Origin: Ramazzottius varieornatus
Lineage: Eukaryota; Animalia; Tardigrada
Length of the DNA: 64,000 bases
NCBI GenBank assembly: GCA_001949185.1
Contig: BDGG01000003.1
Location: 190,679-254,678 of the forward strand
Reading direction: 5' to 3'
This document shows positions 451-50,010 of the stretch, piece by piece (position 1 is the first letter of the stretch; every line of letters begins with the position of its first letter). The notes below the pieces were generated by a model, which was given only the letters and a program-made list of their open reading frames with translations, was not told the DNA's origin and ran no database searches. The position numbers were made by a program, and so were the translations under genes.

Positions 451-2228
451 TAACCGCACGTTTTCCCCAGCATCGACACCCAGACAGGATTTGGCCTTTG
501 TCTGCACTATCGATACACAGTAAAACTTTGATACGGTTATCCAATCGGAAATTCCCATAAAGTTAGCACATTTCTTACGACGTTTCCCTACGGGAAAAGA
601 AGACCTCAGCCTTCAGAACCAGAATGCGAAAGGCACCTCCATTGTGCGTTATATGATAGGTTTTCAGTTGTTGACGCGCGACCAAAACTCGTTTTGGCAT
701 GCTTTTGCCTTGCCGCAGGAGCCCCGCCATCGAATCCCGACCTTTTCCGCTCGTCGCCAAGTTGGGGACAGAAGGCGACCTTTCGCAACCCGATCTCGGT
801 ACCAAACTAGCATCCTCTTTAATGTGGCCCTTTGCCATCACCAAATCCCTTACAGGCTACCGAACACCCGAAAATCGCTTTTTATTACTGCATTTTGCAG
901 TTTAGGACGAGAGGATTGCCGATCCTTAGGTTCTCTTGTGAAACAGCTCGTATTATCTAATCAAATCGAATGCAGGTATGTTCTTGTAACGTAGACTTGC
1001 TTCGTGATAGTCGTTAGTGAATAACCACTCCTTGTGCAGATAAGGGACTGAGAATTTACAACAGTAACAACAATCTGGGTGACTTCCGGAATGCTGAGAA
1101 AGTGACGATATGGACAGCGCCTTCTACTGGTATGTGGAGCAACGGCGTGTGGGCTCCCGAGCTCCACCGCATCAATGGGCAGTTTTACGCGTACGTAGTA
1201 AGTTTAGCTGACAATGGTAACAACATCAATCACCGCATGTACGTCTTGAGGGCCGACGATAGCAATAATCCGATGGGGGCATATACTTTTATCGGAAAAA
1301 TTGCGGATGCGGGAAAGGATTGGTGGGCTATTGACGGGACTGTCATGCAGCATCGCAACGGCAGGAACTACTTCATCTATTCTGGCTGGGTAAAACGAAA
1401 ACTTCAACCGGGTCGTTGGTCCAAGTGGCGCACACCGTCAGCCAACAACAACGCAAACGTGCGCCGCTTGGGTAAATGGTCTGGGTATAAATCCGTTGTC
1501 GGCTAACAAATAAAAACTACACATGAATCCGCGTGTGGAATCTTACCGGGTTTCTCTCGACGAAGGATAAAGCGTACAACTACGACCCGATGGTCCAACA
1601 TCTGTTCATCGCCGAGATGGCCAGTCCAACTTCCATCGTCCCCGGTACAGCAACCTTGATCAAGAGCCCAGTTTTCCGTTGGGAGACTGACGGACAAGCA
1701 GTGGTCGAAGGACCGGCTGTAGTTGAACACAACGGATCGTATTATCTGTTATATTCGGCCGGCGCATCGTGGACAGAGTACTACAGCACGGGTGTGATGG
1801 CTCTCGACGGGAACTCGAACCCTTTGAACCCGGCCAGTTGGAAAACTACAGACCACACCATCTTCCCGCGCAACGAAGCTGATGGCGTGTTCGGACCTGG
1901 TCATGCATCCCCTAACGAACCTAATTTTACAAAACTACAGTAAAATACAAAGAAGGGTATTTTAGTGGGGATCTTCCAATGGCAGATATAGTGAAATTTC
2001 AACATTTCGGAAAGAATCAAAGTATTAGGATTTGTATTGGAAATTTTCGAGAAAGCAGAAAAAAGGAGTCAGATTTGCAGCAGAAAATTCAACAAAGAAG
2101 TATTGCTGCCGCAAAAATCAGCAGCGTGAAACGAGCAAATTCAACAGTATCAAAGATACCGCGTAGGCAATAAATTAGTAAATGATCAACGCGAATATCC
2201 TTTCCCAGTAACTTGAATCGAACATGAA

Positions 2229-3050
2229 CTATAACAAAGAAAGTCCGACATAATGTCTGGGACCGTTGCGAGTTAGCTGACGAGTACCGTGAACGTCTTT
2301 GTCGTGTGAAAACACTTCTTTTACCGCCAAGCCAATCCGACGTGACAGCGATCTCGTTTCCTTCTCCGTCGGCCGGCTGGGATCCATCCCCAGAATATCA
2401 GAGGCAACTCTATGGAGCACGAGCAACGCAGGTGTCTCTGCTCCTGAAATAATAGAATAATAAAATAACAGCACAGCGACCTTACCGTGACAGTGGTGAT
2501 GTTTTTCTCACATACAGGAATGCTGCTGAGCCAAAAAAATGGGACATGAGCGAATGAATTGAAGCAGATCGCTTTCTCAAGTGGCGCAGGTTTGTGTTCT
2601 TAATGGGTGAAAGTTTGCGCCACTTAGGAAAACGATTTGGTAAAAATCATCTACCCACATTCCAAATATACAAGCCAATTATGTCTTGAAACTTTCACAC
2701 ACCTGGGTCTTCCTTCAAAAGACTACTGAGTCCGTTAATCAACCGCTGGAACTCCTTCGAGGCTTCCTTCTTTGACTTGTAGGTTTCGCCGCGTTTAGGA
2801 CGGCTGTCGTATTCCTTCAAACAGTTGACCATCCTCCAGTATTCAGCAATTGCGTCCCCGCTTTGTAGCAACGATTCCTCAGGCTCCCGTGTGTCCTTTG
2901 ATTCCGGGTATCCGTACCACTACACGTGGTACAAAATACGAGTACCAAGGCCTTTCTGTCCTTCATGGCCAACAATGCGTTCAACGGTATATTTTCGCTT
3001 ACTGTTTTTCGGGGCTGAAACTCTCATATTCCCCTTCTGAACAAACCTAC
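2229..3050 (-). pseudogene. Chromodomain-protein gene carried inside the transposon
   Basis: YTVERIVGH...ILYHV*WYGYPESKDTREPEESL (about 2991-2835). TAG at 2920-2922 replaces the usual K, and TWEP has become TREP. A probable downstream exon lies at ~2444-2229. Gene limits are approximate. Confidence 0.75.
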
Positions 3051-3807
3051 TGGCACCCATATTCAATAAGATCCTGACGATAAATTCAGACACTACTAAG
3101 CGATGGCGCGATAGTGATAAATTTTCCGGAGAGCAAGCTGGGACAGATAGTATCACGAGGCTGTAAGCAATTCGAACGGCGCAGCAATGGAATTGAACAT
3201 CTGCGCGTGTCTAACGGCAAGACAGATGTCGGTCAGCCTTTGCAGCACTGCAACGACCAGATCCAGTCTGAAGACAGGCAGGGAGAATTTTTCTGAGAAG
3301 GTGCGCCTGTTCCGTATATTGAACATCCTTGTTTACTTTCTCATTGTTTCTTGCGGAGCCAAGCCTGGCTGCTTGTTATTCATCCCGTAACATTCTGAAG
3401 CATGTGTGGGGTGGTATTTGACGTATACAGCGTGCTGCAATATAGTATGCAAATGTCCGCGTGTATTTCGATACGTTGACGTCACACGCTGCCATATTGT
3501 TCGAATGTGCAGGCAACTCCGGGCCAACTTACCTATTATTAAAAAAGCTAGAAATACGAAATCACAAATCTCAAGTTTAGTCTGTACTTGGCTCCCGTAT
3601 ACAATGCTTGGAGTCTAGTCATTCCTGTATGAAACTGTGCTGTGCAGTAACCATCGGATTGCGATGGTGAAAGCATCGGACTGCGATGGTGCAAGCATCG
3701 GACTGCGATGGGAGTTGGCCTTGAGCTGCACCTGCAACACAGAGGCCACCGGTCAAGCAAAATGTGGGCCACCACGACGACCTAGTTGAACACGGTATAA
3801 GCCACCG

Positions 3808-6038
3808 ATGTCTAGCGAGTCTAATTTAACAGCATCCATTGAAGTAATTTATGTGATTTCGTTTTCGGGATTTTTTCAGGGAAGGAAGAAGAATGCGCCA
3901 GCCAAGCGGAGCTCACGTATGGTCAATACCGAACGTGCAGAGTCCGACCGCAACAAGCGCAACGAACTGAATAACCGCCGGTTATTTGAGAGCACAGATT
4001 GCCGTAAGCGACAGCATCGGAGTGCGGATGGGGAGGACGAAGAGAGCGATAGTGAGACCGCGCCAGGTCCTATTGTAAAGTCAGCAGTTCAATATAAGCC
4101 CAAGATATCCTTTCGAAAGAGCACAAACAGATCGCGTTCGAGCTCGGCGTCGTCTGTGGAAGGCAGCCGTTCATCCAACTCATCGTCCAACGCGGCCAAA
4201 GACAGACATAATAAGAGTGATATAGACCGCGACCGAAGCCATTCCAAGAGTGCAGAATTTGGAGAGGTTGAGAATGAAGATGAGTGGAGCGAAAACGACT
4301 GGACGCGTTGACCAGAAGGCAAGTCAACCCCAGTCATTCCTAAAATATTTCTTTGAAATATAAGTGTGTTGATGGAGATATTTTGGGTGATACGATATCA
4401 AAAATGAGTGCGCGGTTAAAATACTCGACAGAAAACGTTTTCAAGTGGCGCACGTTCATTGGCAATAGATCCATAAATATGCGCCACTAGGGTAAACCAC
4501 GATGTTAGGCTTGTGTGCCGGGTCCGCGGACGACCTAAATCAGTTTCAGCATGTTCGTGATTGACGGTTTCCAGTATTCGATCTGGTGTTGTTGTAGCGC
4601 GCGAAAATGTTGGACACAGCTCAGACTCCGGACTGGACTCAGAGGAAGATAGTCGTCGGAAGAAGACGCGGGAGTCTGGTAAATTCCATTTTGGGCGTCG
4701 GCAAATTATCTGAACAAAGTTGTCATCCCAGGAGCCGCACGCTTTCACTGTAAATTATTGGAAATGTGCGCCACTTGGATATGCGATCGTTTTCAAATCA
4801 TTTAGTGACGGCTGAATTTTCGTAACTTATAACAGTGCAACATTTTTTCTAACACCAGAACTAATTACTGACTGCTTTTACAGCAGATACAAATCTTGCC
4901 GGAAGTCGGAATGGTCTTCCTCCGGACGAGCAACCTGACTGGATGGTCGACAGAGAAAGCGGTATGGTAACTGAAGCACCGTAATTTGATACGCCGGTAT
5001 TAAATAGGGTTTTGCAGTGATGCCGGCCATCATTCATCCGACTACTCTCCCATCACGGACGGTATGGATGAAACGGAGAAATGCAAAGTTTATCGTTCCT
5101 TTCATTTGAAGAAGGCTAAAGGTAAACCAAGGAGTGATTAGTAATATATTAAGATCTTGGCCGGAAAGGCAAACGATTGGGCAGATCGGCACACAAACTC
5201 GAGCAGGACGTTTCTTAAGTGGCGCACGTTTCCCTTGTTGCTGGTTGGAAAGCCTGCGCTGATTACAATCTGATCTTGTCCTGCCTGTTTTCCGAAGTGG
5301 CGCACGTTGGCCGATATTAGTGGCTGGAGGCGAGCACCACTTCGAGAACCATTATCTCGGAATTACTATCCTGGAGTGACGCAAGCTTACGGTACTATTG
5401 GCTGAAAGTGTGCGTCACGTGCAAAGTGATCTGGTCGAATTGTCTTCCCAAGTGGCGCAAGTTTTCGATATTATTGACCGGTTGCGAGCGCCAATTTGAG
5501 AAACCATTCTGTCGGAATTATTATCCCCAAGTTGCGCACGTTTACAATGTTATAGCCTGAAAGCGTTCGTTATTCGAAAAGAGATCTATCGCGTTTGTAT
5601 GCCGAGCTCCGATCTGTTGGTCTCTATTCTGCAGAGTACGAGCAAATACTGAAGGAACTCGGAGCCGTCAAAGAGCGTAAGCCGAAGCTTAAAGGTACGC
5701 GATCATCCGTCCCGTGGTATTGCTCAGCTCGACATTTTCGAAAATACTTATGCCTGTGTTCTGTCCTTAGTGCCAGAAATTAAATGGTCGTTCCTCAAAG
5801 ACGAGAAGAAAGTCGATAAGACGATCTACCAGCGCCTGGGAAAATCCGACATCTGGGTGAAGAAGCGAAAATTACAAGAGCTGCAAGAAAAAGCGAAGGA
5901 TATGGACGAATACGCCCGCAAGCTGATGTGGAATATCCTGGTTCCTTCGGAAGATGTTTTGGCACTGGCAGATAAGAAGGTGAAAGGTATCGGATTCGTA
6001 AAGATGTTCGGAAAGAAAAACTTCGAAAATTTGTTAGG
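3808..6038 (+). pseudogene. Multi-exon gene with an S/R/D/E-rich N-terminus and a BEN-like domain, truncated
   Basis: Exons ~3880-4318, 4575-4678, 4884-4961, 5018-5121, 5634-5694 and 5771-6038 with mostly GT-AG borders. The last exon reads IWVKKRKLQELQEKAKDMDEYARKLMWNILVPSEDV, resembling the first helices of a BEN domain. In-frame TGA at 4309; no further exon found. Confidence 0.45.
5205..5580. repeat. Tandem array of ~77-bp hairpin units (AAGTGGCGCA-N~25-TGCGCCACTT), intronic
   Basis: Motif variants start at ~5217, 5295, 5373, 5450 and 5530. Alternate units resemble each other more closely (~155-bp dimer). Confidence 0.7.
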
Positions 6039-6777
6039 TAAGCCATGAGCATATCCTTCGCTTTGTTGCCTTCGGCCCTAATGTGGACGCGACGTCGCAG
6101 TCCGAAACCACCCTGGTCGCAGTCCGATGTCGTGAAGAGAGATTACTGTATTCCCTCGATTGTTTCGCGAATCACGTGATGGTCGACGTAAATATTACCC
6201 GGCGGGGCTAGAAAGGTGCCCGCGGGTTAATAAAAATAGTCTCAGTTCTGTACGAGAGGATGAAGATCTGTGAACCTGATAGCTTCCTTGTTCTCGCCGT
6301 AGTATTTTCGGTCTGATTCATGCACCGAAGTTTTTCTCTGCGTGTTCCATATTATTGTCTGTTCCCTTTCACGGCCTTTTCTCGCAATTGAAGGTCGGAT
6401 CACATAGCGTGCTGCTACTACAGCCATAAATATTTGAAGCTGAAATTCCGAACGGATCGTCAACCAGATTTGTGCACTGCATTCTGAGGCTACGTAATTG
6501 CAAGTCAGATCAGTAGGCTATGAAATGGTACGTAAATACCTGCCCTTGTTTTTGCGCTGCTAATTCAGACTTTGGGAAGTGCGCCGCAAATACATTGATT
6601 TAGTCGCCGTATTTGAAACATGAACTTTCATAGAGAAAATACTCCCAAAAATTTGCAGGAAAATTAAATTTCTCGTTTATTATGACCATTAGGGATCGTT
6701 TACGACCTCACTCGATGGAAAGGAGAACTGGATCGTATACCACGCTCTAGACAGACGGGTGAGCATGATTCTACTCA

Positions 6778-9223
6778 CAAGGGGATTACGGCAGTCCTCC
6801 GCGTCCGACAGCCAGTTTGATACCATAGAACGGTAGAGGAGAGTCTTCTCTACGAACTAAGAAAGAGTTGGCGTACCAAGTGGAATCCTGGAAGACACGG
6901 CAGGAACTGGAAGTAAAGCTAGATTTTGGGGCGGAACTGCCCTGATTTCTTACAATCAAGGCTCTTGATTGCCTAACGATTGATTTAGCTACTGATTGAC
7001 CAAAACTGCTTTCACCAAGCTCCGAAATCGGTATTGCGCACTTGCAAGAATTCTCCTTCGATTCCTGTTTCTTCCCAATTGACTACTGATCAAAATGGAA
7101 TCTGTAATTCCGCTCAACATATTGAGACTGCTGGAGGTAGACTATGAGCAGCGCTATCAACCGACCGCTTCTCCGAGTGAATCTGACAAGTTATTGAGGC
7201 TGATCATCAAAGGTAAATTTCAATTGATTCTGGATATGAAGGTAGTGTAAAAAGTATACTAAACTTACCGTTCTTACAGAGTTTTTGGACAACCATATCG
7301 TCCAGTTTCACGCCCCCGCGGTCAATGTCGAGGAAGACCTGGAGTACGAACGGCAGCTTGACGTATCCACATTCGAAGAACTGGAGGAATCTGTCCCCAA
7401 TGGAAACCTGTTGAATGGCCACGACGAAGCTGATTTTGAGAGCGTTCAAGATGACCGCCTCTACGAGCCTGTCTCAAGTGCAACTGAACCGTCGTCCCAT
7501 GAGCTCTTCATTCCGAGAATACCAGATCCAAAGGTAGAAGCGAGTCAGGCAGCCAGTCTTGATTACAAGAAGCGTGCTGTGAGTTACTGGCGGAGCACGA
7601 AAAGGAAACGTCGTGCTTTGGCAAGTGTTTAGAAGGTCTTCAGCAAGGTTACCAGCGCGCGACAGCTGGGGAACGTCAGGTTAGAGAAGGTGGCTCGCGG
7701 CCAGACAAACTGAAAGCTTCACGTTTGGAAACGGGCAAACAGTTCTTCTTGGCCAAGAAAAAGCCACACGTCGTAAAAGACATGGACATACGAAGATGGG
7801 CCGTCACAGCAAATCGAGAAATTGGCTTGGAAGATTTCACAGCATCTCCTTATTGGGTTGGGAAGTTTAAACAGTGAGTTTTAAACAATAATAATTATTT
7901 GTACGCTAATGTTTCAGTAATGCATGTTTCGCTGTTCGTGGCAGTGCTCATCAGAATTAATTTTGTTTCGTAGGTACTACGGTATTTGTGACCGAAAAAT
8001 CACAGCGTTCGTCACGGCAAAAAATCTACGAGAAGCTCCTGATGTGAAGAAGGATGCAGACGAGTGCGTGGCATACGTGCGATCAAGAATCCAAGCTTAC
8101 GGGTTGGACTGTCTGTGGAATGCTGATCAGTCAGGGTTCGAGTATGAGATGCGGCCTGGCCGAACTCTGGACTTCATCGGAGCGAAGCATGTCCTGGCTT
8201 AAACCCAGTCCGAAAACTCGATGACTCACAGCTATACAGTTATGATGGCCGTTTCGCCGGGTAATCGGAAGTTTCTTCCCGTGCTTTTCATCACATTGCA
8301 GGAAGATAAGGGCGTTTTCGGACCAATCGTGTCCAAAGCTTTGTTCAAGGCTAGGAACCTGCACGTCACTGCTTCCAAGTCTGGACAGATGACAAAAGAG
8401 CTATACATTGAATGGTGCGAAAAAGTGTTCTTCCCTCAAATGAACGGACACTGCTTCTTCTTGGCGGACTCCTGGAAAACGTTTGCTGACCACGACGCTG
8501 TTGAAGAAGTCAAGCCGGAAAAACTGGAGTACGAAATGATCACCATCCCACCCAAGGTGACTGGTTCCATTCAACCGCTTGGCGTGCTTTGGTTTCGCAT
8601 GTACAAGGGCTACTTTAGAAAGATCTCTAACTGGATCTTTCTCAACGACGAGCCTGTACAAGTTCACCATAGAGACGTAATTTTGAAACTACATTCTCTC
8701 ATTTACCAGCAATTCACTTCTCCTCGATTCGAGAATTTGATTGCACAAGCCTGGCACTTGTCAGGATATACTGACAAATCTGTTAAGTACATCAACCCTA
8801 CCGAATTTTGCTTTGAAGAGCTGAACGGCCATTGCGACCACGACAACTGCAAAAACTCTTTGCTTTTGAAATGTGGTTGGTGTAAAGCTCCTCTTTGCTT
8901 CCATCACTTTTACGATGTTTATCACTTTTGTAAAATCTTTCTTCCTTGATGTTTTCTCATTAGTCGATCTGCGTTTTGGTAAATCAGAAAATCAGTTTGG
9001 GTCAATCAGTAGCTAAATCAATCGTTAGGCAATCAAGAGCCTTGATTGTAAGAAATCAGGGCAGTTCCGCCCCAAAATCTAGCTTTACTTCCAGTTCCTG
9101 CCGTGTCTTCCAGGATTCCACTTGGTACGCCAACTCTTTCTTAGTTCGTAGAGAAGACTCTCCTCTACCGTTCTATGGTATCAAACTGGCTGTCGGACAC
9201 GGAGGACTGCCGTAATCTCCTTG
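6778..9223 (+). mobile_element. Tc4/Tc5-like (pogo-related DDE_1) transposon with ~230-bp TIRs, inside a GH43 intron
   Basis: C-TCA|CAAGGGGATTACGG ... CCGTAATCTCCTTG|TCA-G, a TNA duplication at a CTNAG target. TIRs 6778-~7008 and ~8994-9223 are nearly identical. Confidence 0.92.
7095..8949 (+). pseudogene. Tc5-like transposase, inactivated
   Basis: WNADQSG, THSYT, SGQM, LADSW and IQPLGV (third catalytic D replaced by G), plus a Cys/His-rich tail. Stops at 7630 and 8200; contains introns. Confidence 0.85.
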
Positions 9224-9761
9224 TCAGTCCGATGAACTGAGTCAGAAAATAGAAATCGTGTTTTTCACATATTTAGGACGGCGGATGGGGTAACCGGACA
9301 CCTCGAGCTCAGAAGTACTTCTTCGACGACACCGGCTTCCCAGTCTTTCCTCCCGCGGTTGGATCCCATCATGAGCTTCCGTTGCCTTCCGGCACGAGGC
9401 TGTAGAGAGAATTACGTGTGCGTTTGGTTAATTTAGTGCAAAAAGCGGCCCATGAGATAAGCGCATATAATCGCACGTAATAACCTAGTGGAGTGGGACA
9501 GTGTTTGAATAAAAATGCCCCATTTTTAGCTTTTCGGTGCGTTGCTCATTGACAGCACAGTACTTCAGAAGTCTTCGGTTCACGTTCTTATCAATTATCA
9601 TTGTCCTATCGTCTCTTGTTTACTTCTATCAACAAGATAACGTAAGTTAACTGAAGAGTTCAGCTGTTGTCCACTCATGCTAACGAAATAGGGAGTATCG
9701 ATTCCGGCATTAGAGTAAGTTTAGTTTCATCGCAGCGTGTTCTGACTGATGAGCTAGGGTA

Positions 9762-15312: not shown

Positions 15313-18300
15313 TTAATCGTCAAGATCGGACAAGTATTCTGAATTTCGGAGACAGAGAATTTTTCTTTCGAGATTGTGACCAGCTAGTCTGTTTCCCTTC
15401 CCCATAGTCGCCGCCGATGCGATAGAGAAGACTCTTTCGGGCGCACTCGAAGCAGTGGGAATGGCCAGGATGTCCAAAGCGAGACGACTCAACAGAGGGA
15501 ACTTATCAGCATTCTGTATCCAGAAGACTTCCGGGTTGTCTTCAACGTTGTCGTCGGAGCCGACAGGAAGGCTTACGTAGGTCTGAACTTCCAAGTCAAA
15601 TGGAGATTTCTGTTGCGTGACTTCTGAACTTGCATCGATGAAGAAATCCAAGTCGTCAATACCATCTGGAGAACTGTTCGCATTCAGTGCAGTCGATTCT
15701 AGCAATGTTCCTGAAAAGCAGCGAGGTGCTACGTTTGTCACCCCCATAGAAACTAGGTATGACATGTGACCGGTATGTGTTTACCTTGCGTGGGCTCCTC
15801 ATACCACTCAATGTTTTTCAATGACAGCCATCTCGAAGCAAGACTAGACAGTCGCTGTGGCAATGTAAGTCTCAGTTTCTTATGGAGAAATGTGCTCGCA
15901 ATGTAGACAGCATCGAACTTTGAGTTGCAATCATCTATCACATATCCGAGCACGCGCGACAGCTCTGAATCCATGGCAAGAATGACCTGAACGACAAACA
16001 CGATCACCGTGCACCACCATAAGTAAGATAGATTTCGATTGTAGTTTTTAGTAAGATTTTCCGTAGGAAAGTGTATGGCGAGAAAATTAAAGCTTGAAGT
16101 GACATACTACAGCACATTTTGTTATTTTTCTGAGTTGGCGCTAATTACCCCTTCGAATGGGTTCTCAATATGGAAGCTTGAAAAGTCGAGTTTGAGAAGA
16201 GCATCGCGAACTGACTCCAAATGCCTGACTAGTCCGTTCGTGTAAAAGTGAACTCGGTGGATGGTCGCTTCCTTATCCGCGCTGAGTTTGTCCGTAACCT
16301 GTGAATACTCAATACATATGACATCGAACCAAAAATTTCTGACTTCATCAGAAATTATAAAGGGATAGCTCAAAGACTTGCTGACCGTATTAAACTTCTC
16401 CAGTAGACGTATGATAAATTTTATGATGAGCCATTCACCAGGAGTTAAACCAGGGATCTTCAAGCGACGAGCCATGATCTCTTCCACGGGTTCTCGTACT
16501 TCATCAAGTCGTCGCAGAAAGAGCAGAGTAGAATTCCATCGGGCTGAGACATCTGCGATTAATGTCAGCCCGGTAGCTTTGAGAAGTTCACCCGTGGTTA
16601 CGTGAGACATTCGGAAAGTCTTGACTATAATTCTGGCTTTCTTGATGATCGGCTTTAGCTTTTCATTCTTCTCGAATGCTCGAACCGCGGTCTGCAGTCG
16701 ATGGATGGTACAACTGTGACGCTTGATTCTGCAACAGAAAAGAATTCACACTGACGTGCGGTTGACCGTAATGCTCGAAAAGCAGAACATTCATTTATTC
16801 CATATGGACGTGTGATGTGGAAGCTCGGCAAACAAACTAGACAGAAAGGTTTTCTTGTGTCGCGCAGTTTGACAGTGTTATCGCCTGAAAGCGTGCGCCA
16901 CTCGAAGATCCATCTTGTCAATTTTTGTTTGCCTAGGAATTATATATGGACAAAGCGCAGTAAGAGAAAATTACCTTCCGTCAAACTCGGTCTCGCATTC
17001 ACCCTCGAACCTCATGTACTCATTGACCTCTTGCTGCGTGTTCGCGTCTTCCATTTCAACTGAAACTACGCTCAGCAGTGCTTCTTCCTCCTCTGACTCG
17101 TCAGGATTTACCGGACTATTCGACTGAACGAGGTCTTCGACTGAAAGCGGCCACCATGTTTGAACCGTTGTCCGTCACTACGGCGGATATCTTGTACGAA
17201 GGAATCTCCCACCCAGCCAAAATCTCCATCGTAAGCTTGAATAATCGAGCGGCACTGTGTGGACTCGGAAAAGTGCGACATGCCAGGGTCATCCTTCGCA
17301 TCGTCTTCGTGGGATGATCATACATCCGCACCGTTACCGCCAGCTTCGACTCAGACATTCCGCGTTTAGTCCAGATGTCTATAAATAAATAACACTAAAC
17401 GTCAATCTCAGTCAAAATAGTAACCGCTCAACATTAAAATTAACTGTCATGTCAGTCAGAAATTTGGACGACATCATTTTTCCAGCTGGCGCACACTTTC
17501 AGCCAGAAAAACCGGAGCAGGCGTCACTTGGGACAACAGTTAATGTCATTAAGTCTGCTCGTCATAATGGCGCAGACTTTCAGGAAATAACAGTGAAAAT
17601 GTGCGCCACGTAACGAATAGTCTTGCAAATTTGTTTGAGGCCGTGCTAATTCCGATTCACCTGTAGAGAGAGATATCTTGGTGGCACGACAAAGCTCTGC
17701 CTTCATGTTACCAAGCTTCTGCTCATAGACCTTATCCATTTCCGTATTCAGGGCTTTCCTTCCAAAAGCAGGGGAACGAGGATCATGCTTCACGAAAGCA
17801 CGTTGGGTAGCCGGATTCGCGCATAAGGATGGAGTCGCCGTTGTCCGTAAAACCCACAAGGCCCGTTCGCGCAGGATCGTTCGATATCTACAGTCAGAAA
17901 GCACAAATAATTAGCCTGAAGTAGATCGACGGAGAGAGCAGAAAGAAACAGCAACAAGCAACAGCAAAGGCCGACTTACCTCAAACTTCCCTGCTCGTAC
18001 GGGTTTGACGATTCGAATTTCAGCTTGGACTGGATCATGGCAATGCCTGTTGCTGGCTTGTCCTGCTTCTTCTTCTTGAGGTCTTTACGAAGCTTTTCCT
18101 GCTCTTCATACTTGGCAAATGCGTCGGGATGACGGTTCTTCAGATGGGACACAGCGTTTCCGGTGTTGCCAGCAGGCTTCGCTTCATGGCTACAGGATTT
18201 ACACGTTGACGTACCCGTCTCAGCATCCTCAGTATAGTACTGCCATACTGCAGAAGCTTTCTTTTGACCACCGGGTAGTTTACGCTTTTGGGAAAATCGA

Positions 18301-18485
18301 CTGGAAGACGATGTCGAAGGCGGTCGAGACGACTCATCTTCGGAGTCTGAACCGTCGTCGGTTTCCGCAATGTCGATTACTGGTGGGCTTGCTGCTATTG
18401 CAGCTGCTACAGGAACTTTCCCTCTTTCCGGTGGTAGCTCCTTCTTTGCGCCTTTTATAGGCTTTGTCCGCGACGGTGGTCTCAT
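15313..18485 (-). pseudogene. hAT transposase, multi-intron, with an apparent frameshift near 17140
   Basis: BED finger (VWQYY..CKSC..HLKNRH), STDIWT, VTDNGSNM, CTIH, RWNST, and the C-terminal dimerisation motif FW..FPLLSRLALDILAIPTASSAPERVFS. Confidence 0.88.
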
Positions 18486-18812
18486 GACTCTCTGACAATC
18501 TAGCAGTTCTTTGCAAATAAGAGGAGAACAGACAAACAATTTGTCGAAGGCAGTAGGCCAGTAGCAACTCCTGTAGTACAGCTTGCATCCTGCACCTACA
18601 CTCTCTAACATGGCCGGTTAAAGTGTCGCACCGTATGCAGCTGCATGATATCCTACGGTATTCATTCGCAATTTCGCAGTACGGCAGTAGCCCTACTGTG
18701 CCGCTGTAGAGGCATCGGTATGGTGTGGCGCACTTTATAGGGCGTGGTCGCACATTGAGCAACCAGCGCACAGGCAGTTTTTTGAACCAGCGGTGCCGTT
18801 AACCGGATAGTA

Positions 18813-20251
18813 TCAGGTGATAAGGTATGACTTGTCGCCTCACACCAGTCTTACATTGAAAAATCCATATCTCTCTTTTAGCGCGATCGTTTCGTCTCGG
18901 TTTTTTTTGTGTCGATGCTAGTGTTCGTCTACTATCTTTCGCTGCTTCGTTTATGTTAGTTTGTTGCTTCTGCCCTCTCTGTGGAGTTATTGGCGCGCCC
19001 ATGGACAAGAGCAAGTTACGGACTATTTTCGAGTATGAATTTCGTCGCGGCACCAACGCAGCACAGACAGCCCGGAATATCAACAATGTGTTTGGTGAAG
19101 ACGCCACTAACGAACGTACGGTGGAACGATGGTATGCTCGTTTCCGTTCGGGAGATTTCAGTCTCGAAGATCACCCTCACGGAAGGCCAAAACTGAAAGT
19201 GAACAACGACGAGCTGAGAAAGCTGGTGGAGTCCGATCCTTCCCAAACGTCTGCCGTATTGTCTCAACACTTCAACGTATCACCCGTGACTATCGATTTG
19301 CACCTTCGTCAGATCGGTAAGGTGAAAAAGTTGGAAAAGTGGGTACCTCATCAACTTAGCGCACTCCAGAAAAGGCATCGTGTGGACGTGTGTCTTTCTC
19401 TCCTCAACCGTTCCAGAAACGAACCTTTCCTGCATCGAATTGTTACGTGTGATGAGAAGTGGATTCTTTACAACAACCGGAAGCGGAAGAAGGTAATTTT
19501 GAGCCCAGGTGAAGTCCCGAAACTATTCCAAAGCCTGAGCNNNNNNNNNNNNNNNNNNNNNNNNNNNNNNNNNNNNNNNNNNNNNNNNNNNNNNNNNNNN
19601 NNNNNNNNNNNNNNNNGATTCTTTAACAACCGGAAGCGGAAGAAGGTAATTTTGAGCCCAGGTGAAGTCCCGAAAACTATTCCAAAGCCTGAGCTTCACC
19701 AACGCAAGATCATGGTTACTGTTTGGTGGACAATGGAAGGGATAGTGCACTATGACTTTCTTCCTCCTGGCAGAACAATAGTAGCAGACTACTACTCTCT
19801 GGAACTGGAGGAAATGATGAAGAAGCTGACCGTCAAGCAACCAAAGTTGGTCAATCGTGACAAGCCCCTGCTGCTACACGACAACGCAAAAGCTCACTCC
19901 GCGAAAAAGACTTATGCCAAATTACGCGAGCTCGGTCTGGAAACTCTTCCTCATCCACCATACAGTCCTGACTTAGCTCCAACAGATTATCACTTCTTTT
20001 TGAATTTTGATAACTTTTTGAGAGGAGGAAAATTTAATTCCGAAGAAGCTGTGAAAAGTGCCTTCGAGAACTTCGCCGGTTCTCTTTCTCTCGAGTTCTT
20101 CCGTAAAGGCCTATCTTGTCTACCGGAAAAATGGCAAAAGTGTGTCGATAGTAATGGTGAATACTTCGATTGAAAAGGATTAGATTCAAACTGGGGAAAA
20201 TTGTAATAAAATTTTATGTTGGTGGCCGACAAGTCATACCTTATCACCTGA
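18813..20251 (+). mobile_element. mariner (DD34D) element
   Basis: TA|TCAGGTGATAAGGTATGACTTGTCG ... CGACAAGTCATACCTTATCACCTGA|TA. Confidence 0.95.
19001..20173 (+). CDS. mariner transposase, probably intact; spans a gap with duplicated flanks
   Basis: HTH, GRP, WVPHQL, TCDEKW, LHDNA and YSPDLAPTDY motifs; no stops outside the gap region. Confidence 0.9.
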   Translation: MDKSKLRTIFEYEFRRGTNAAQTARNINNVFGEDATNERTVERWYARFRSGDFSLEDHPHGRPKLKVNNDELRKLVESDPSQTSAVLSQHFNVSPVTIDLHLRQIGKVKKLEKWVPHQLSALQKRHRVDVCLSLLNRSRNEPFLHRIVTCDEKWILYNNRKRKKVILSPGEVPKLFQSLSXXXXXXXXXXXXXXXXXXXXXXXXXXFFNNRKRKKVILSPGEVPKTIPKPELHQRKIMVTVWWTMEGIVHYDFLPPGRTIVADYYSLELEEMMKKLTVKQPKLVNRDKPLLLHDNAKAHSAKKTYAKLRELGLETLPHPPYSPDLAPTDYHFFLNFDNFLRGGKFNSEEAVKSAFENFAGSLSLEFFRKGLSCLPEKWQKCVDSNGEYFD

Positions 20252-22273
20252 TAAAATATATTTTACTTCAGATGACGAACAGCTTAATAATAATAAAATA
20301 TCGCACTTCTACTTTCGAGCTACTAAAATATTAATATCGGGTTCCGGAGCCTAAACCTGTTTACTAAATGTTACTAAATATAGTAGATGCTCAAACCATC
20401 TACTTTAATATAATATTACTATATTAGAACATCACTAATCGGAGTACGAAACGTAAGCTTAGGCCAGTCACCAGCCAAGTACTCAAGTTTAATGTGGGAG
20501 TACACGCACGACGAGATANNNNNNNNNNNNNNNNNNNNNNNNNNNNNNNNNNNNNNNNNNNNNNNNNNTTTTCGGTACGGCGGTACGGAAGCACGTACGT
20601 ACGCGACCGATCCACAAATACACTTTTCGACACTTTTCTACGTTTGAATTTTTATTTTTCCGCCTGGCAATCAATTTTTACTGGCCCACAATATCTCGTC
20701 GCGCGTGTAATACACTTTTCGACACTTCTCTGCGGTTGAATTTCCATTTTTCCTTCTTTTCCGCCTGCCCCATGATTTGTACTGGCCCATTATTTCTCGT
20801 CCTGTGTGTACTGTGTATGTTTGTTAGAGATCTTCAGCCCATAATCATATGGTCGCTGGTAGGCTTTTTTGCTCGATCCGACCAACGACAGGCCCAACTT
20901 TCGTCAGAAAGTAGTATATTTGATCCAGACATTCAGAACGCGATCCTTTGTATCCGGGTATATCGCGCCATGTTCACCGATCGTTTTGAGTTTCATGTCT
21001 TCCCGTGGCTGGAGTTTTGTGTGCAAAATTCTCAAAAGAGAACTTGAGAAAAATGTATATCTCAGTTAAGCGTTTCGCCTTCCTTCTTGCAGTTTTATTT
21101 GCGTTGAGTCCTTTCGCGTTTCCCACAGGTAAGACTCGGTTTATAATCACCCTCTGCATGGGTTTGCTTCTTACATATGTGCCCGTCTTTGTAACAAGTA
21201 ACGCGTTGAGGTGCATCACGTGCAATGAAATGGAGCAAGATGCGCATGCAATAAATGTAACCGGTATGCGCGCACAGCCCGTTTGCGCCGGGTATGACGG
21301 TGAGCCCCTTAGATGCCTCACGTTCACTGGGCTGAATTACGTAAATTTCAACGGTAAGACCAGCTCCGCAAACTCGATTGGTGGGTTTGTCCAAGCTTTC
21401 TGCAATAGTCCAGAATAGACTTGCGAAGACACTGCTTTACGTCTTTTAGTGGACGCAACCCAGCGAAGGTGAGGCACATTGAGGTTTAGGAGAGCGTACT
21501 TTGGAAACTTTCTTGCCATATGAGTTCACGCCATACAGCTGCATACTGTATAATCGCGCTTTGCTACGGTTGGTAACTCATTTCAGGCATACTGGGCCAG
21601 CAACCCGTCGGTTCGGTGGCTTTAGCCGTCAAACATGTGACAACTTGATGTATGGCGAGAAATTTACAGGCAAGAAGCGCCCTCGGGGACGAGGTGCACG
21701 TCCCAGCTACAGGTTGTGTCAGCCAAGTTGGCGGTGTGGAAGTTTTCTTCCCTTCAAAAAATTGAGTGTCAATGCTCTTTGGTTTATTCTATTTCAGTCC
21801 TGTTTTGTAGAAGGGTGTATTCTTGGGTTATTTCTAATTGGTCAGGACGAATTGTTTTCGGTTCTGACCCCAGGTGTGTGTCCGAGGGTCTTTGGGTAGT
21901 TCGATAGAGCAACTCATGTACTGCGTAGCGCATGTTAGGAAAGTGGTTTTTGACCGCTGGTCTGGGAGATAGGCAGCCGGAAGCTAGAAGTCCAAAAACA
22001 TGAAATTACCATAATTACATGACAAAACTGGGCAAAATTAGCTGTATTGAAATTCAGCAACCACAGTACCGAAATTTCGCAAAAGTAGGACTGCAGTGTT
22101 AAAATTAATATACGGAGGATAATGGTAGGGAAACTGAACTGTGGCGTAGATAATCAAGGAAACACAGGTCACGTGCTGCCAACATGTAATGCATTTCCTA
22201 CCTTGTATACTGCCGCTTATCTATTTCAACTCCTTTCTCTTTAGCCTACTCGTACCCCTGCCTTGCCTGTCTA

Positions 22274-24242
22274 CAGTGTACGCCAATATGGTCACCCGAA
22301 ACTGGGCGGAGTTTTTGGGCGTTAACCACAACCCCGACAACTAATGAACAACAGCCAACTGCTGGATTTATTTATTTTACAATGAGCAGAACACTAACAG
22401 TAAAACAGAAACGTATACCATAAAACAGGAAATCTCATGAGGTAAAACACGAAAGACAACCGAAAATGAAATTATGAGTTCAGTAAGGGATGCGAGCACC
22501 GGAGTTGTTGATACACTCAGTCATTCTGCTGTACATCGAGCTCACCAGGTTACTGCAGTACTCGGGAGTAACAATTACCTTCCATGCTTCCTGAATTAGA
22601 GTGTCAAGCTCCTCAAGATCTTTCGGTCTTCGATCACAGATATACATATTCATTTTTCCCCAGACATTCTCGATGACATTGAGGTCTGGCGATCTAGACG
22701 GCCATGTCAACACCTAAAAGAAGTACGAAAAATTTGTGTACTTATGTTTATCCAAAAACAAAATATATTGTGTAACATGGGCGTATCAGATAAAAAACAC
22801 TATTGTTTTACGAGAAAAAAACTTTGAATGAGTCCGCTCATCCGCCTTTGCGCCTAACACCCTTCCGCAACGTTTTCGCTCGATTCAACAACCGATTGGT
22901 CTGCTCTAGTAAATTTGAAAATTGAAAACAGAAATATTTAAATACTGTTTAATAGAAAGCGTACTTACTTCTATTCCTTCTCGCCAGAAAAATTGACCCA
23001 TCCGTCTAGAGGTGTGTACTGGACACTTGTCTTGCTGGAACACCAAATCCCGACCATGCTTCTCAAGATACGGAAGTAGTCGCTCGAACAAAACTTCTTC
23101 GTAGGCGCCCGAACCTATTCGACCGTCAACTCGAATTAACGCTACAAGTCCACATGCTGTGATGGCACCCCACAACATTATCCCGCCTTTAATGCGCGTA
23201 CCTACGGCGACTTGCAAGTCTTCATCGTGACGGTTTTCCTCCTTCAAGTACCAGCACTATAACGATAAGTGATAAGTATATCGAATTTATCAGATTCATT
23301 AAACGCGTTAACGTGTTAAATTTAACAGGCACCTTGCGTTTTCGACGAAAGCCTTAAACAATTGACCAAGGAAATAGAAAAATCGTTCCGAATGACAAAC
23401 TTGCTTCTCGAAGACCTTAATACTTCGAGAGCAGAGACTCATGAATTTAGAAGGTTAAACGAACTGATTTTCAGAAGGTTAATATTATTTACCTCGATCT
23501 TACCACCGTGCAAGTTGAAACGAAATTCGTCACTGAAAACCACATCATGGAACAGGGTGGGGTTTTCCAGGAGTTGTTCACACTGAAACAGGCACCAGAA
23601 CACCCGGTTGTCTTTGTGCTCCTGGGTTAACTCGTCGAGAACAGCTTTGGATCGACGAGTCTTAAACTCACGAAGCCGATTCAGCAACGTCCGGTGGGCG
23701 AGTCCAGCTTCGAGGGCATCGTGGCCGCACTCAGCTCCCGCTTTGACTGAACGAGCCCAAGCATTTCGGCGTCCTGCTCCCCGCTCGTGATACGAGGTCG
23801 TCACTTGGGTTTCACCACTTTCCGCTTCTTGGTTTCGGGATCATAATTCTCGATTGCGTTCTTCACCCACTTGTGGTCTTTTCCCATCACACGCCCAACA
23901 GCACTCAGATTCTTGTTTTTCGCTGAAAACAACTTAAAAACAACGCTGACAAGGGTTGGGTCCACTGGCATACCACGAACCATCTTGAATTCACGAGAAG
24001 ATATTAGAATTTGCGACCCAAAGGATCCGGAGCTGAAAGGATCGCTCGGTAATACAGCTTAGTATATCGCACTACCGGTTGTTGCGCAACAGGTTCATTA
24101 GCAATCAGCTGTGCCTATTTACGTTTAATCAACCATGTCTAATCAACCAGATCACTTTTCCTGGTTTTTAACTGGTCGTCTGCGGCTTGGCTGACGCCCA
24201 AAAACTCCGCCCAGTTTCGGGTGACCATATTGGCGTATACTG
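22274..24242 (-). mobile_element. Tc1-like (DD34E) element with a defective, intron-containing transposase (23983-22480)
   Basis: TA|CAGTGTACGCCAATATGGTCACCCGAAACTGGGCGGAGTTTTTGGGCG ... mirror|TA. Motifs FSDE, FQQD and WPSRSPDLNVIENVW. K*RPR stop at 23801-03 plus a frameshift. Confidence 0.92.
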
Positions 24243-24631
24243 TAGATGCGTCTCATATACGGCTGACTTACTGGCTTCTCTGCTTGTTCCCGTTTGTAGT
24301 AAATATGCAACATTTCATCCAAATGAAGCGAATACCCACCACGAAACATTAATTATACATTATAAGGCTATCGAATATCAGGCTGGGGGCTTTTTAATTA
24401 CCTATGGATATTCCGGAGGGGAAGAAACTTCAAAGCAATTTCCCCAAGTTCCTATCGCTGCCCATGGTCGCCCAATTTAATTGGAGATACAACTCGTCGA
24501 GCTCTACAAGCTCATGACAAAATCGATTTTTTCCGAATTATTTCAAGTATAAACCCTTCTATAAAACAGGCCTCATTTCGAGTAAATACAGCTCACAATC
24601 TGAACTTGTTTTCTGTGTTCGTAAGTTAAAT

Positions 24632-24676: not shown

Positions 24677-26283
24677 TTCTCACAACTGAAACTTTCTCAC
24701 GCAGTTTCGAATCAGTGCTTTGCTCGAAGGTTCAGGAATTCAACGATCATGTGCTGCTGCTCGAAGGTTCAGGAATCCAACGATCATGTGCTGCTCGGGG
24801 TTTTGTCAGTGTGGTTGGAGCATCGGAATCGGTAGACAGCTGTGAACGCGTCTTGAGCTTCAGAGTTGCACTTGGAGATCGGACACAGTATTGGAATGGC
24901 GACCTTTGTTTGTGTTCCGACAGCCGTAATGCTTGTAACACAAGTGCCTGTCATACCCGGCAGTCTTACTTTGATTCATTTAACTGTGCTCTTGTCTCTG
25001 TTCCGGTTTTCCCGCTCGTAAACCCAGCGGCGAACGATGCTGCAAATATCAGTGTAACAGTATGTTTACGTAAGATGGTATGTACTATGGTGGAGCTTTT
25101 CTACTCTTCATTCTGTAGGCAGTAAAGTTTTACAGTACACCTACGATGGGAGATTATGGAACAGGCGGAAGAGACGACAAAATGGAAAATTAATCGTGGA
25201 GAAAGCTGAGAAGCATCGAAAAGTGTATTAGAGTGAGTCGGCCGTGTACGTACACTGTACGTGCATCCGTGTCCCTACTGTTCTCATTTGCATTCTCGTA
25301 TCTCCTGAACTCGCTGTCTAACTTCGATAACCACAAGGCTATTCCGAAGCAGATAGCTTGAAATCTTCAAACGAGTGACGGTCGAGCCGATTCGTCGAGC
25401 CGATGGGCACTGTTCATGACAATTTTCTACCGTTAAATTTCACTGCGTTACGTCATATGCTCGCTTTTCGTTGCTGGCTCGCATTTAGCATGTAAATTTG
25501 CCGTCCTTTCCGCTGTCTCATACTTTTTACTGTCCCATACTTACCCATCTTACGTGTAATAAAAAGAGTATACGACCTCTTCGCGAAAGTTTCGTATGAA
25601 ACTTCTCCTGGAGATTGCTTCTGCCGCAATCAACGGAGCCATGTTTTCGCTACATCTGGCAATTTCGTTGTTTCCCTGAAGCTATCACGTAACGAGAGAG
25701 CGAGACCCCAAAAACGACGCTCATTTCGTTGTTCGAACCGGCGAGAGATTGCGGTTGGTTGATTGATTGAAGAGTCGGCTCGACTGTCACGCGCCTGTTT
25801 CGTCAAGCTGTCTGTTGCAAAAAAGCCTTAAGATCATCAAAGTTGGACAACGGGTTCAGCAGATACAAGGATGCAAATGAGCATCATGAGGTGGCGGTGT
25901 AATATATGACGATGACTGTATAAGCTGCATTTTGAGTGGTTTGAACCTCGTGTCATTCGACCTCACAAGACTAATAATGCCAAACGGTAAATCTTCAGTA
26001 GCATGGGAAAGCAAAGTTCCTGATATCGATGCCAAGATTGCTACATGGCGGGCCAGGCATCGTATCACGACCGCGATAAAAGGTGTTTACTGCCTGTAAT
26101 GTTTATACAGTTCATAGGAAAAGTGCGCAACGGTTGGAAACCAGGCCGGCTCTCACACCCCAGTCTCGTGGCCTTCTTCCACCTATATGCTGACCGTTTC
26201 CAGCCAAAATATGCTGGTGTGTTAAAAGAATTCGCCCAAGTGAATATTCACCCAATTACCATCAGCTACTCTTCAATGTCACA

Positions 26284-46411: not shown

Positions 46412-47959
46412 TGAAGAAAATTACGCGGTTGAATTATCCACTCATCTACAAACGAAAACAGAACCACATTTGTTCGGACTCGTATGCACGAAAGAAAGCT
46501 TCGCGTTTGAAATGGACTAGTTTGAGAGTCATATGAAGGACGACCAGCCTGCTCTAGTCGTACGCAGCGCAAACATCGCTCCACCGAGAAAGCGAAAGAT
46601 TATTATCGTTGGATAAACAAGGGCAACTTCAGGCTTGATGGTTGGAATGATAGTTTGACCATGTCTTCCACCACGCTGATCAATATCGGTGTAACGAAAT
46701 TTAGCTCGATCATGCAACAGGTGATCGAATTCCCGATAACCACAGCGGGACCTCGTCACCTCGTCGACCGTTACCAATTATTTTCTCAACAGTGGCAGTA
46801 GTGGCCGAGCCGCCACCTGTTGTCAGGTATTTGCGGTGAACTGGCTTTTTTCTTGCCCATTCAAAAATTAGTGTCAAAAATGCGCCCTGCAGGTGATCAC
46901 ATGACATTACACATTGATCAACGGCAGCATGCTCCACGTGATCATTTGCAGGGTAGCATCGTCGACATTGTATTAGAAAGCTTACCGTTTGGACTGCTGT
47001 CCAGCAGCTCTTGACATCAGATGTACATACACCGGTTTCAGAATTTCGAAGGTCGAATAGAAAAGATGAGAGCGGAACGGGTTGTGGAGCTCAGTTCTTA
47101 ACCGTGCAATGAGGAGCCTCAATGCGAGCAGCAGCTGCAGGATGGCGGAAAAAACACAATGAACGGAAAAATGGTTAGCCAGAATGTGCAAACTAACGAA
47201 GCACAGGCACTGATGTGCTGCTGAAGCGCGCGTCTGTCGGAGCATGGCAAGCCAAAACGCGCAAAATTATAATGCCAGGCCATAAATTTACCGGAGCCAG
47301 GTCCCGTATATAGGAAACCTTGACATCGAATCCCGGTAGATTGCTTTTTCAACTATTGAGCTAATAGGTGCAGTCAATCAACCGAAGTGTGGTTTTGTTT
47401 CTTTTTCATACCCAAGCTGCGGTGGAGGTTGATTGAATGATCTTACCACTCGGTCAGATTAACAATCTGATACGTCACAGAATGGTTACGTCATGACTAA
47501 AAGCTGCCCTGCATTATGCTTTGACCCATGACGTCAAGGATACTTCACGGCGTCCTTCCTTCCAGCAACGCGCGCTTCAGCAGCACATCAGTGAGCACAG
47601 GTTCATAAATGACCGCTGAACAGCCTACGTCGTTGAGATAGAAATTAAGAGAAATGACTGGACATCGCGGTAAATCGACGTTTGTGGCAAAACGATCGCA
47701 GAGATTGGTCAGACCAGAGGGTATATAGAGTGCGCCCATTTCCGTATCTAAGGAGAACTTTCTGACTCATCGATCCGCTCACTGGTTCGCCGAGAGCCAT
47801 ATGACTAAAGGACCTCCATTAAGAACGTATGAGGCATGCGACGACATACCCAGTAAGGTTTGAGAGGCATGGCAGTGCGTGGCAGATGGCGGGGTGTAGC
47901 ATCAATAGCTTCGGTCATGTCGATCTCGACTACTAACGTATGAAGTGGAACATGCTTGA

Positions 47960-49193
47960 CAAGGGGATTATGCCTGTCCCGACGTCCTGACAAAACGATA
48001 GAGAAGAGTCTCTTCTATGGTCTGACTCAGGGATAAATCCCTCACCATCCTGGAATAAACTACGGGACTCGGAAGTGACTGTTTTAAACTAATGCAGTGA
48101 CGGAAGCTCCTTGATTGGGTGCTTGATTGAACAGATGGCAACTCAGCGGCTGTCTCAGCTGTTCCGTCAAATTAGGACTGGGTGGCCAGATTAGGACTGG
48201 CTGTCGCGCATCTTCAGCGAGTTTTGGCACGGTGTCCGGTCTTCCTGATGATCAGCTGAGCAACTTGTTCGTATTGTCGGTCAACACCCGCAATCAAAGA
48301 GCTTTACGTGATCCCGGCATTCTGGAGCCGACAATGGACTTTCATTTCCGAGTGCTGTAGTTTATTCCAGGATGGTCGGAGGGATTTACGAGGGACCATT
48401 CAGACCATGTGACTCGTCGATCACGAAACCGATACTTTTATACGATAGCTGAGGCCCTTAGCTCTCTACAAAGTATCGGGAGGACCGGTGAATAACCACT
48501 TCCTGGAACTGCAGGAAATCCCGAAGGTGCCTCGTCCACCGTAGAACCCGTGTTATAGCCTGTATAGCGTTACACAAGACGATCCAAAAACTGGTCCGTT
48601 ATCTAGGGAAACTCCAGAATTCACGTGCGGACGGTGTAAAATGATATTCCGAACCTNNNNNNNNNNNNNNNNNNNNNNNNNNNNNNNNNNNNNNNNNNNN
48701 NNNNNNACTCGTGTTCAAATTATTTTCTGTAGTTTCCGACGGAAGCTGTTACAGCCGTCCAATACGTATTAGCAACTGCGGGAAAAAAGTCTTCCCGAAA
48801 AGTTCGCTTTTCGTTGGTGGCAGCCCGCATGGGGTTCGAAATATCACTTCACACCTTCCGCAAGTGAAATCTGGAGTTTCCTTAGATAACGACCAGTTTT
48901 TGGATCGTCTTGTGTAACTCTATACAGGCTATAACACGGGTTCTACGGTGGACGAGGCACCTTCGGGATTTCCTGCAGTTCCAGGAAGTGGTTATTCGCC
49001 GGTCCTCCCGATACTTTGTAGAGAGCTAAGGGCCTCAGCTATCATATAAAAGTATCGGTTTCGTGATCGGCGAGTCACATGGTCTGAATGGTCCCTCGTT
49101 AGCTCTCTCGCTCAGATCATAGAATGGATTCTCTTTTATCGTTTGCCGGGACAGTTTGACTGTCGGGATGTCGGGACAGGCATAATCCCCTTG
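47960..49193. mobile_element. Non-autonomous Tc5-like fold-back element (spans a gap)
   Basis: CAAGGGGATTATGCCTGTCCCGAC/GTCGGGACAGGCATAATCCCCTTG termini share their start with 6778-9223. ~270-bp inner inverted arms (48388-48656 and ~48832-49099); extra ~45-bp IR pair at 48034-48388. Flanks TGA and TCA do not match. Confidence 0.8.
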
Positions 49194-50010
49194 TCAGTAG
49201 GTGTTACGACTACCGTGGTGAAATTGAGCGGTAAGTTCCTGGTCGGGTCTACTGGACCGATGAAGTCGCGTCGTCAGCCTCGTGCCACAGTGTTCAGATC
49301 TCCCACTGAGCGAATATTTGAAGGAATTTTACAAAGACTTGATTATGATGACCGGGAGCACAGCTCGAGTAGACTGTCAGGCCCAGGATGTAGAGCCTCA
49401 AAGCCATCCAGTTTCCAGGGCTGCTTTTTCAGTTTACCACACTGAACTGTTACGCACTTACGCTCGCTGCTGTACGGTAGATTTAGTTGCACCATGTGGC
49501 AAGTTTCGTACTGTGAAATCAAAATTTGGTTTTGGTATCGCCGGAGTATCCGATAGCGTTGGACGTACTGTTGCAAACGCATCAGAATATGCTTTATGTT
49601 TAATCGAGGTTGACATGGAATTGATTTCTGTGTGGTAACATCCCGTCATCAGCTGATTGAGTTGAGGGTGGTAATACGTGCCGCAGGTAGGCATTCCGTG
49701 CTTTCTTCAAGCTATGGTTAAAGGTCCCACGGTCAAGTTATTAACACCAACGTGACAAAGAATATACATAAATTGAATGCCGCACTCAGGGTGAAACCAA
49801 CCTCTCGAAGCATGGATCTCTCATATCCCTGCGTGAAGGCGAAGAGTACCCCACGCCATAATGTTGTGTCCTTGAATTATTAGTATGAAGAGATGCTTCC
49901 AAACATAGGGTCTGTATACTTCATCAGTCTTGCCGGAACACCTATATATCTCGACCAGAGGTACCATGGTGCGCTTGGTCACAACTCGAAGTGGACGGAG
50001 CATCTTTAGA

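Follow-up and report, generated by a model that had tools for sequence, protein, structure and literature searches.

The 64,000-nucleotide stretch of Ramazzottius varieornatus (Tardigrada) DNA analysed here (contig BDGG01000003.1, positions 190,679 to 254,678; called the window below, with positions counted from its first letter) carries an inserted mobile element at 1910–6694, within a host gene coding a glycosidase of family GH43. The insertion itself is confirmed. The element is best read, with a probability of about 60%, as a non-autonomous tardigrade derivative of the CACTA/EnSpm (CMC) superfamily in which the transposase gene has been lost and two accessory genes have been retained: a chromodomain gene on the minus strand and, on the plus strand, a gene whose relatives are predicted to have a BEN fold. 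CACTA derivatives devoid of transposase are an already known kind. Caspar-type derivatives have likewise lost the transposase and retained a second gene; they differ from the present element in being found in plants and in carrying an unrelated cargo (PMC11071193, File S1). The coordinates of the features are collected in Table 1.

The boundaries that the initial annotation had described as exact are borne out. The element is flanked by ATC on either side, begins with CCCTAA and finishes with TTAGGG, and deleting it in silico together with one ATC leaves the GH43 frame open across the junction. CCCTAA occurs at seven sites and TTAGGG at two sites of the window, and only the 1910/6694 pair is flanked by a 3-bp direct repeat. 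The perfect terminal inverted match spans only 6 bp, the imperfect one 12 of 16 bases. The left junction is crossed by a 2546-bp contig of run X1, with 0 differences over 950–1938, and also by contigs of runs X8 and X9 (X1 is a DNA run; X6, used below, is presumed to be an RNA run, and the nature of X8 and X9 is likewise guessed). These contigs, and the coincidence of duplication, inverted ends and frame repair, the first two of which would meet by chance with a probability of ~4e-6 per given junction pair, make it very improbable that the structure is an artefact of assembly or duplication whose terminal matches arose by chance, as could be suspected from the 6-bp perfect repeat and from the lack of a contig across the whole stretch among the contigs listed. 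A link of the TTAGGG end to telomeres was discarded, its support not going beyond six bases, and an Rfam search gave no match.

Both ends carry CCCTA and conform to the rule for CACTA/EnSpm (CMC) termini, which start with CAC or CCC. The ATC duplication, seen at one insertion, falls in the 2–3 bp range of this superfamily. The ends of animal CACTA elements share a CCC core, the inverted repeat of the Tribolium element beginning with CCCTAGTA (PMC1636069), and the consensus of plant CACTA ends is CMCWR (PMC3227409). Schistosoma SmTRC1 and the TRC elements of Tribolium and Aedes share CCC-starting ends and spliced transcripts with the window element, and the Tribolium repeat also has CCCTA (PMC1636069). 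A further likeness to this animal CACTA/EnSpm (TRC) group is the CACTA-type transposase piece found in the gene family context of the element (RvY_00158, see below). In the tardigrade repeat library 12 consensus sequences start with CCCTA, and seven Hypsibius families (hypDuj5-5664, -3849, -1120, -6062, 3-305, 4-1829 and 4-2984) start with CCCTA(A/G)T and have listed 3-bp duplications (PMC11071193, Tables S1-S2). The latter resemble the window element in their first bases, short inverted repeats and duplication length, but they are 289–1863 bp long, have no genes described and are labelled PIF-Harbinger, DNA or Unknown. The first ten bases of the element itself were not found in the part of this library that was searched (PMC11071193). 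The Hypsibius families labelled PIF-Harbinger that begin with CCCTAGTA have eight bases in common with the Tribolium CACTA repeat and may have been misfiled.

The absence of a recognisable transposase, reported from the first inspection, holds: six frames of the element were scanned with no Pfam match, and the upstream, transposase part of gene model RvY_00158 has no match in the element and no trace in the window. This model (740 amino acids) provides the link to a transposase. Its last 93 residues are 90% identical to window positions 2976–2698, in the chromodomain exon, and its 647-residue upstream part matches DUF4218 (E 1.7e-4, 21.8 bits), which is taken here to be a CACTA transposase domain. 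An H-x3-H motif is found at 438–442 ahead of a Glu; this motif is common to EnSpm, Mirage, Chapaev and Transib (PMC12730594). The join lies within the chromodomain exon, whose start is cut off, which fits a deletion that fused an upstream transposase gene to the chromodomain gene. No match to RvY_00158 was found in viral contigs and phage records. The initial assignment to a CMC-like family is thus sustained by the CCCTA ends, the 3-bp duplication and this transposase piece joined elsewhere to a 90%-identical chromodomain exon.

The minus-strand gene is, judged from its sequence, a broken HP1-like chromodomain gene. Its recognition as an intron-containing chromodomain gene was correct: Pfam Chromo is matched at E 2.9e-9, with the stop at 2920–2922 read as X, and the intron 2444–2702 is removed in X6, the spliced joint being absent from the DNA run X1. 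Besides the in-frame stop, exon 1 has an Arg at 2889, versus Trp in the sister copies; all X1 contigs covering position 2922 carry a sense allele there. The chromodomain is intact in the sister model RvY_11276-1 (Pfam 5.6e-14), and its best solved-structure match is HP1 (E 1.2e-8). Its Tyr, Trp and Tyr, which align with the aromatic cage of HP1, persist in metagenome relatives, which are 62–66% identical and have open frames. Two other metagenome loci, matching RvY_11276-1 over just 29 residues at 55%, were taken as chance. Winged-helix-like matches of the chromodomain protein (Z ≤6.0) were not used, the model being poor (predicted local distance difference test, pLDDT, 38.7), and matches from an atlas search, IS605-type or nameless, were rejected for low feature overlap. 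The protein P0069 is a retroelement chromodomain.

The plus-strand gene has at least seven exons across 3517–6037. Its introns 3795–3879 and 5695–5770 are removed in X6, and a single X6 contig connects 3517–3793 with 3879–4316 with 0 differences, so that transcription and splicing seem to occur for the window copy or for one identical to it. A profile of the 5771–6037 exon retrieves 50 proteins at E ≤0.001 among 1.84 billion, one of which, a repetitive protein of 1312 residues, was dropped as a chance match. Among 20 matches looked up, nine are named, all from Ramazzottius or Hypsibius, and 11 are European Nucleotide Archive (ENA) or Logan records. The model was made for P0026, a Hypsibius relative sharing 41% identity over 90 residues, from an alignment of 51 sequences that left out RvY_11272 and RvY_00156. 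The carboxyl-terminal domain of P0026 is modelled confidently (pLDDT 88–98 over residues 261–410), and of 48,161 chains compared, four independent BEN entries rank highest: NACC1 (Z 7.2), Bsg25A (Z 6.9; root-mean-square deviation 2.6 over 92), BANP (Z 6.1) and BEND3 (Z 5.7), the next row having Z 4.6. NACC1 reached Z 7.9 in a second structure comparison, and of the viral proteins a bracovirus BEN protein matches best (probability 0.98, E 0.03). The relatives of the plus-strand gene are predicted from this model to have the fold of these five kinds of protein. DBD1 of Tn3 TnpA also has a BEN-like fold, able to bind transposon ends (PMC9579193). The initial description of a divergently oriented, multi-exon BEN-like gene stands for the spliced introns and, through the model of the relative, for the fold, but finds no counterpart in a Pfam BEN match. 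Identity to known BEN proteins is 9–11%, and no significant match came from searching PDB sequences with the BEN alignments.

The last helix region of the BEN domain is present in the full relatives and missing from the window copy: the last exon was not found in 6038–6694, where its profile stays under 0 bits, against 23 and 27 bits in the controls. In the BEN domain of LIN-14 the last helix contacts DNA (PMC10080584). A deep, spliced X6 contig of a BEN paralogue (record 13, 5771–6510) skips 6038–6229 and may hold the exon that the window copy lacks. In the full-length Hypsibius relatives a Tudor-like domain is combined with the BEN domain, the similarity of the amino-terminal domain of full relatives to Tudor being weak (Z ≤4.0). 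The window copy is without that amino-terminal domain, the profile of which likewise stays under 0 bits. The chromodomain gene may substitute for it in the Ramazzottius branch.

Both genes are broken in the window copy. The decay noticed at first sight was confirmed by the stops at 2920–2922 and 4309–4311, a frameshift near 5049 relative to RvY_02322 and RvY_11272, and the loss of the last BEN exon. The spliced products of the window match the R. varieornatus gene models RvY_06494 and RvY_06495. By gene identifiers and scaffold length, the two genes lie close together at three loci (RvY_06494/06495, the window copy; RvY_11272/11276; RvY_00156/00158), a recurrence that speaks for the cargo carried by an element that was initially proposed and not for a one-off capture. 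RvY_02322 is a fourth BEN copy (95%), and other BEN subfamilies are also multi-copy, with 94–98% identity on different scaffolds. Among the coding differences listed between copies, 17 of 19 change a residue, as expected of inserted copies that drift freely. Other copies are indicated by depth and alleles. In X1 the depth rises from 26 in the flank to at least 45 inside the element, depth not being equivalent to copy number; distinct element alleles are found in X1 at ~1.4%, the loose ends listed from a read mapping at 97% similarity were those of MITEs, and a 5168-bp contig carries another chromodomain gene, ~80% alike and with a shorter intron. Residues 1–68 of RvY_11272 are an amino-terminal stretch absent from the window, which suggests extra sequence inside that copy. 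In the RvY_00156 model a run of 32 BEN residues is fused to a kinase fragment, which may mark where a truncated copy borders on a host kinase.

A number of points weigh against a CACTA/EnSpm derivative with two accessory genes. The animal TRC elements duplicate 2 bp, not 3, and have perfect repeats of 10–54 bp versus 6 bp here; the two stand-alone accessory genes and the missing transposase of the window copy also set the element apart from them (PMC1636069). The ends and the target duplication are known from one insertion, the window copy, and the co-location of the gene pair at the other loci was read from gene identifiers. Curators labelled most CCCTA-starting tardigrade families PIF-Harbinger, without Repbase similarity (PMC11071193). 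[quoted passage not shown] The DUF4218 score of RvY_00158 lies below the 27-bit cut-off, the C-x2-C motif, which goes with H-x3-4-H in CACTA/EnSpm transposases, is not found in this model, which looks incomplete, and its join could result from a separate nested element or from a gene-model error. No Pfam BEN or DUF4806 match was obtained for any of 14 relatives or for the window exon, and the BEN Z-scores, below 8, are middling and come from the model of a relative rather than from the window copy. Finally, the window copy sits in a gene exon, which is not suggestive of heterochromatin targeting.

The alternative that survives best, although unlikely, is a real element of another superfamily, such as PIF/Harbinger, or a composite of nested elements, the CACTA transposase of RvY_00158 being then an unrelated later insertion. 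The second gene of PIF/Harbinger codes a DNA-binding protein and a 3-bp duplication would suit this superfamily, but its duplication is often TWA, versus ATC here, and Harbinger ends usually begin with G. No Pfam match to a Harbinger transposase or Myb/SANT gene was found in the element frames or the relatives scanned. The filing of most CCCTA-ended tardigrade families as PIF-Harbinger favours such an assignment; the lack of Repbase similarity listed for most of these labels (PMC11071193) and the CCC ends described for animal CACTA elements (PMC1636069) do not. Nesting would agree with the loss of the start of the chromodomain exon at the RvY_00158 join, with the three gene identifiers between RvY_11272 and RvY_11276 and with the amino-terminal RvY_11272 stretch missing from the window. 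It is opposed by a contig at ~2x flank depth that bridges 2915–3700 between both genes, and by the lack of an internal inverted repeat or duplication between them.

Less likely again is a Pack-type capture, in which a CACTA derivative acquired chromodomain and BEN genes from the host, of no use to the element, which were copied along. Introns in both genes, the predominance of residue-changing differences, as without constraint, and the layout of the full-length Hypsibius relatives, which could be host genes, would be explained. Unconstrained change is, however, expected of any inserted copy, and relatives at 62–70% identity retain open frames and invariant blocks. The BEN family consists of several dispersed near-identical subfamilies, all nine named matches among the 20 looked up are tardigrade proteins called ‘hypothetical’, and no conserved host donor was seen among them.

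If the element is a CACTA/EnSpm derivative, its mobilisation was probably in trans: a transposase from another copy would have recognised the CCCTAA ends and cut the element out, and its pasting with a 3-bp stagger would have generated the ATC duplication. The BEN protein of an intact element would, by analogy, use its last helix to bind the DNA of the element itself, in a role like that of plant Spm TnpA, either in assembly of the transposition complex or in keeping the element transcribed. Spm TnpA and VANC of VANDAL elements are comparable in that a separate transposon-borne gene beside the transposase codes a DNA-binding protein, for which self-regulation is plausible. TnpA differs by its tandem helix-turn-helix motifs, reported as restricted to flowering plants, versus the predicted BEN domain and chromodomain and the lack of motif clusters in the present element (bioRxiv 10.64898/2026.08.24.746577). 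The chromodomain protein is predicted to dock on methyl-lysine histones via its three aromatic residues, linking the machinery to silent chromatin. Chromoviruses and other chromodomain Gypsy elements are also mobile elements with a chromodomain, tied there to heterochromatin targeting; they are long terminal repeat (LTR) retrotransposons whose integrase carries the domain as a fusion, in contrast to the separate spliced gene of a putative cut-and-paste element (PMC12477816, PMC4290129, PMC6839031). That the chromodomain protein counters silencing of the element's own copies is doubtful, and that it steers new insertions is a more remote proposal; the first is rated more likely, since this copy landed in an exon. 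After insertion the window copy decayed without constraint, and neither full protein can be made from it.

Table 1. Features of the inserted element, its two genes, the repeats nested in it and the interrupted host gene (window positions).
Feature	Positions	Strand	Remark
Whole inserted element	1910–6694		4785 bp
Left ATC of 3-bp target duplication	1907–1909	+	
Right ATC of 3-bp target duplication	6695–6697	+	
Left element end, CCCTAA at 1910–1915; imperfect inverted repeat	1910–1925	+	12/16 bases match right end
Right element end, TTAGGG at 6689–6694	6679–6694	-	
Chromodomain gene exon 1, ATG at 3060	2703–3060	-	Pfam Chromo 2.9e-9
Chromodomain gene intron, contains MITE	2444–2702	-	Spliced joint in X6
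Chromodomain gene exon 2, ~70 residues, predicted helical, matched to no family	2229–2443	-	
BEN gene, first transcribed exon seen; probably non-coding in window copy	3517–3794	+	X6 record 10, 0 differences
22-bp tandem repeat, 2.7 copies	3652–3711	+	
BEN gene exon, low-complexity charged linker; stop 4309–4311	3880–4318	+	
BEN gene exon, boundaries inferred	4598–4678	+	Match to RvY_11272
BEN gene exon, inferred acceptor at 4884 or 4887	4884–4961	+	
BEN gene exon, frameshift near 5049 versus two sister models	5018–5121	+	
BEN gene exon, likely coiled coil	5635–5694	+	
BEN gene exon, first two thirds of predicted BEN fold	5771–6037	+	
Hairpin MITE of ramVar1-7/-23/-6 kind, chromodomain gene intron	2545–2655		Limits approximate
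Hairpin MITE in BEN gene intron	4415–4505		Approximate
Hairpin MITE in BEN gene intron	4690–4805		Approximate
MITE-derived hairpin cluster, BEN gene intron; 155-bp tandem unit at 5286–5587	5175–5587		
Fragment of another genome-wide repeat, at expected site of last BEN exon	6144–6230		Many loose ends at 6144 and 6179
Host GH43 glycosidase, part before insertion; two exons, MITE in intron	1021–1909	+	Pfam 6.8e-19 and 2.1e-15
Host GH43 gene, continuation beyond insertion	6698–6772	+	Frame repair

The hairpins in the introns of the element are MITEs of the ramVar1-7/-23/-6 kind in the tardigrade repeat library (PMC11071193). This element copy is a relic that has knocked out the host GH43 gene. 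Solved bacterial-type GH43 structures, which are arabinofuranosidases and xylosidases, align up to the insertion junction, and the gene was possibly gained from bacteria. It is broken by two insertions, the second (6773–9228) being located 75 bp past the element. This neighbour has 240-bp inverted repeats at 98% and carries a broken transposase with DDE_1 and a Tc5 carboxyl terminus. A hairpin MITE at ~1390–1510 in the GH43 intron has very high X1 depth. Contigs of X8 and X9 (1035–2836) link the GH43 flank to the left end of the element with ~1% differences and with sister-copy alleles inside, and an X9 contig omits 1625–1873; they represent either gene conversion or a different genotype whose contigs are chimeric.

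Other elements are found further along the window. Broken hAT pieces at 15313–18617 include the dimerisation domain and a BED finger, a Mariner-type transposase with an N gap lies at 18860–20173, and a Tc1/Tc3-type helix-turn-helix fragment at 53510–53911. Further inverted-repeat elements are located at 22270–24246, 25283–25881, 47957–49196 (with 48388–49099 nested in it) and 57265–57529. The ends of the 47957–49196 element resemble those of the 6773–9228 insertion.

Chromodomain-guided behaviour is described for LTR retrotransposons (PMC12477816, PMC4290129, PMC6839031), and separate Spm regulator genes are reported as a feature of flowering plants (bioRxiv 10.64898/2026.08.24.746577). No CACTA element that carries a chromodomain gene or a BEN gene was found described in the literature searched, which did not cover Repbase, where BEN genes of animal EnSpm elements are possibly recorded. 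A tardigrade CACTA lineage with a two-gene chromatin kit, made of an HP1-type reader and a BEN factor and serving in TnpA/VANC-like anti-silencing or in chromodomain targeting, is put forward tentatively, as a possibility that falls short of even odds. If it exists, such an animal lineage would extend both the LTR-chromodomain and the Spm-regulator ideas and would provide two small, testable proteins. The large nameless tardigrade protein family (49 matches) would find its explanation as a set of BEN proteins borne by transposons, and several of the tardigrade repeats now under PIF-Harbinger would then appear to be CACTA derivatives.

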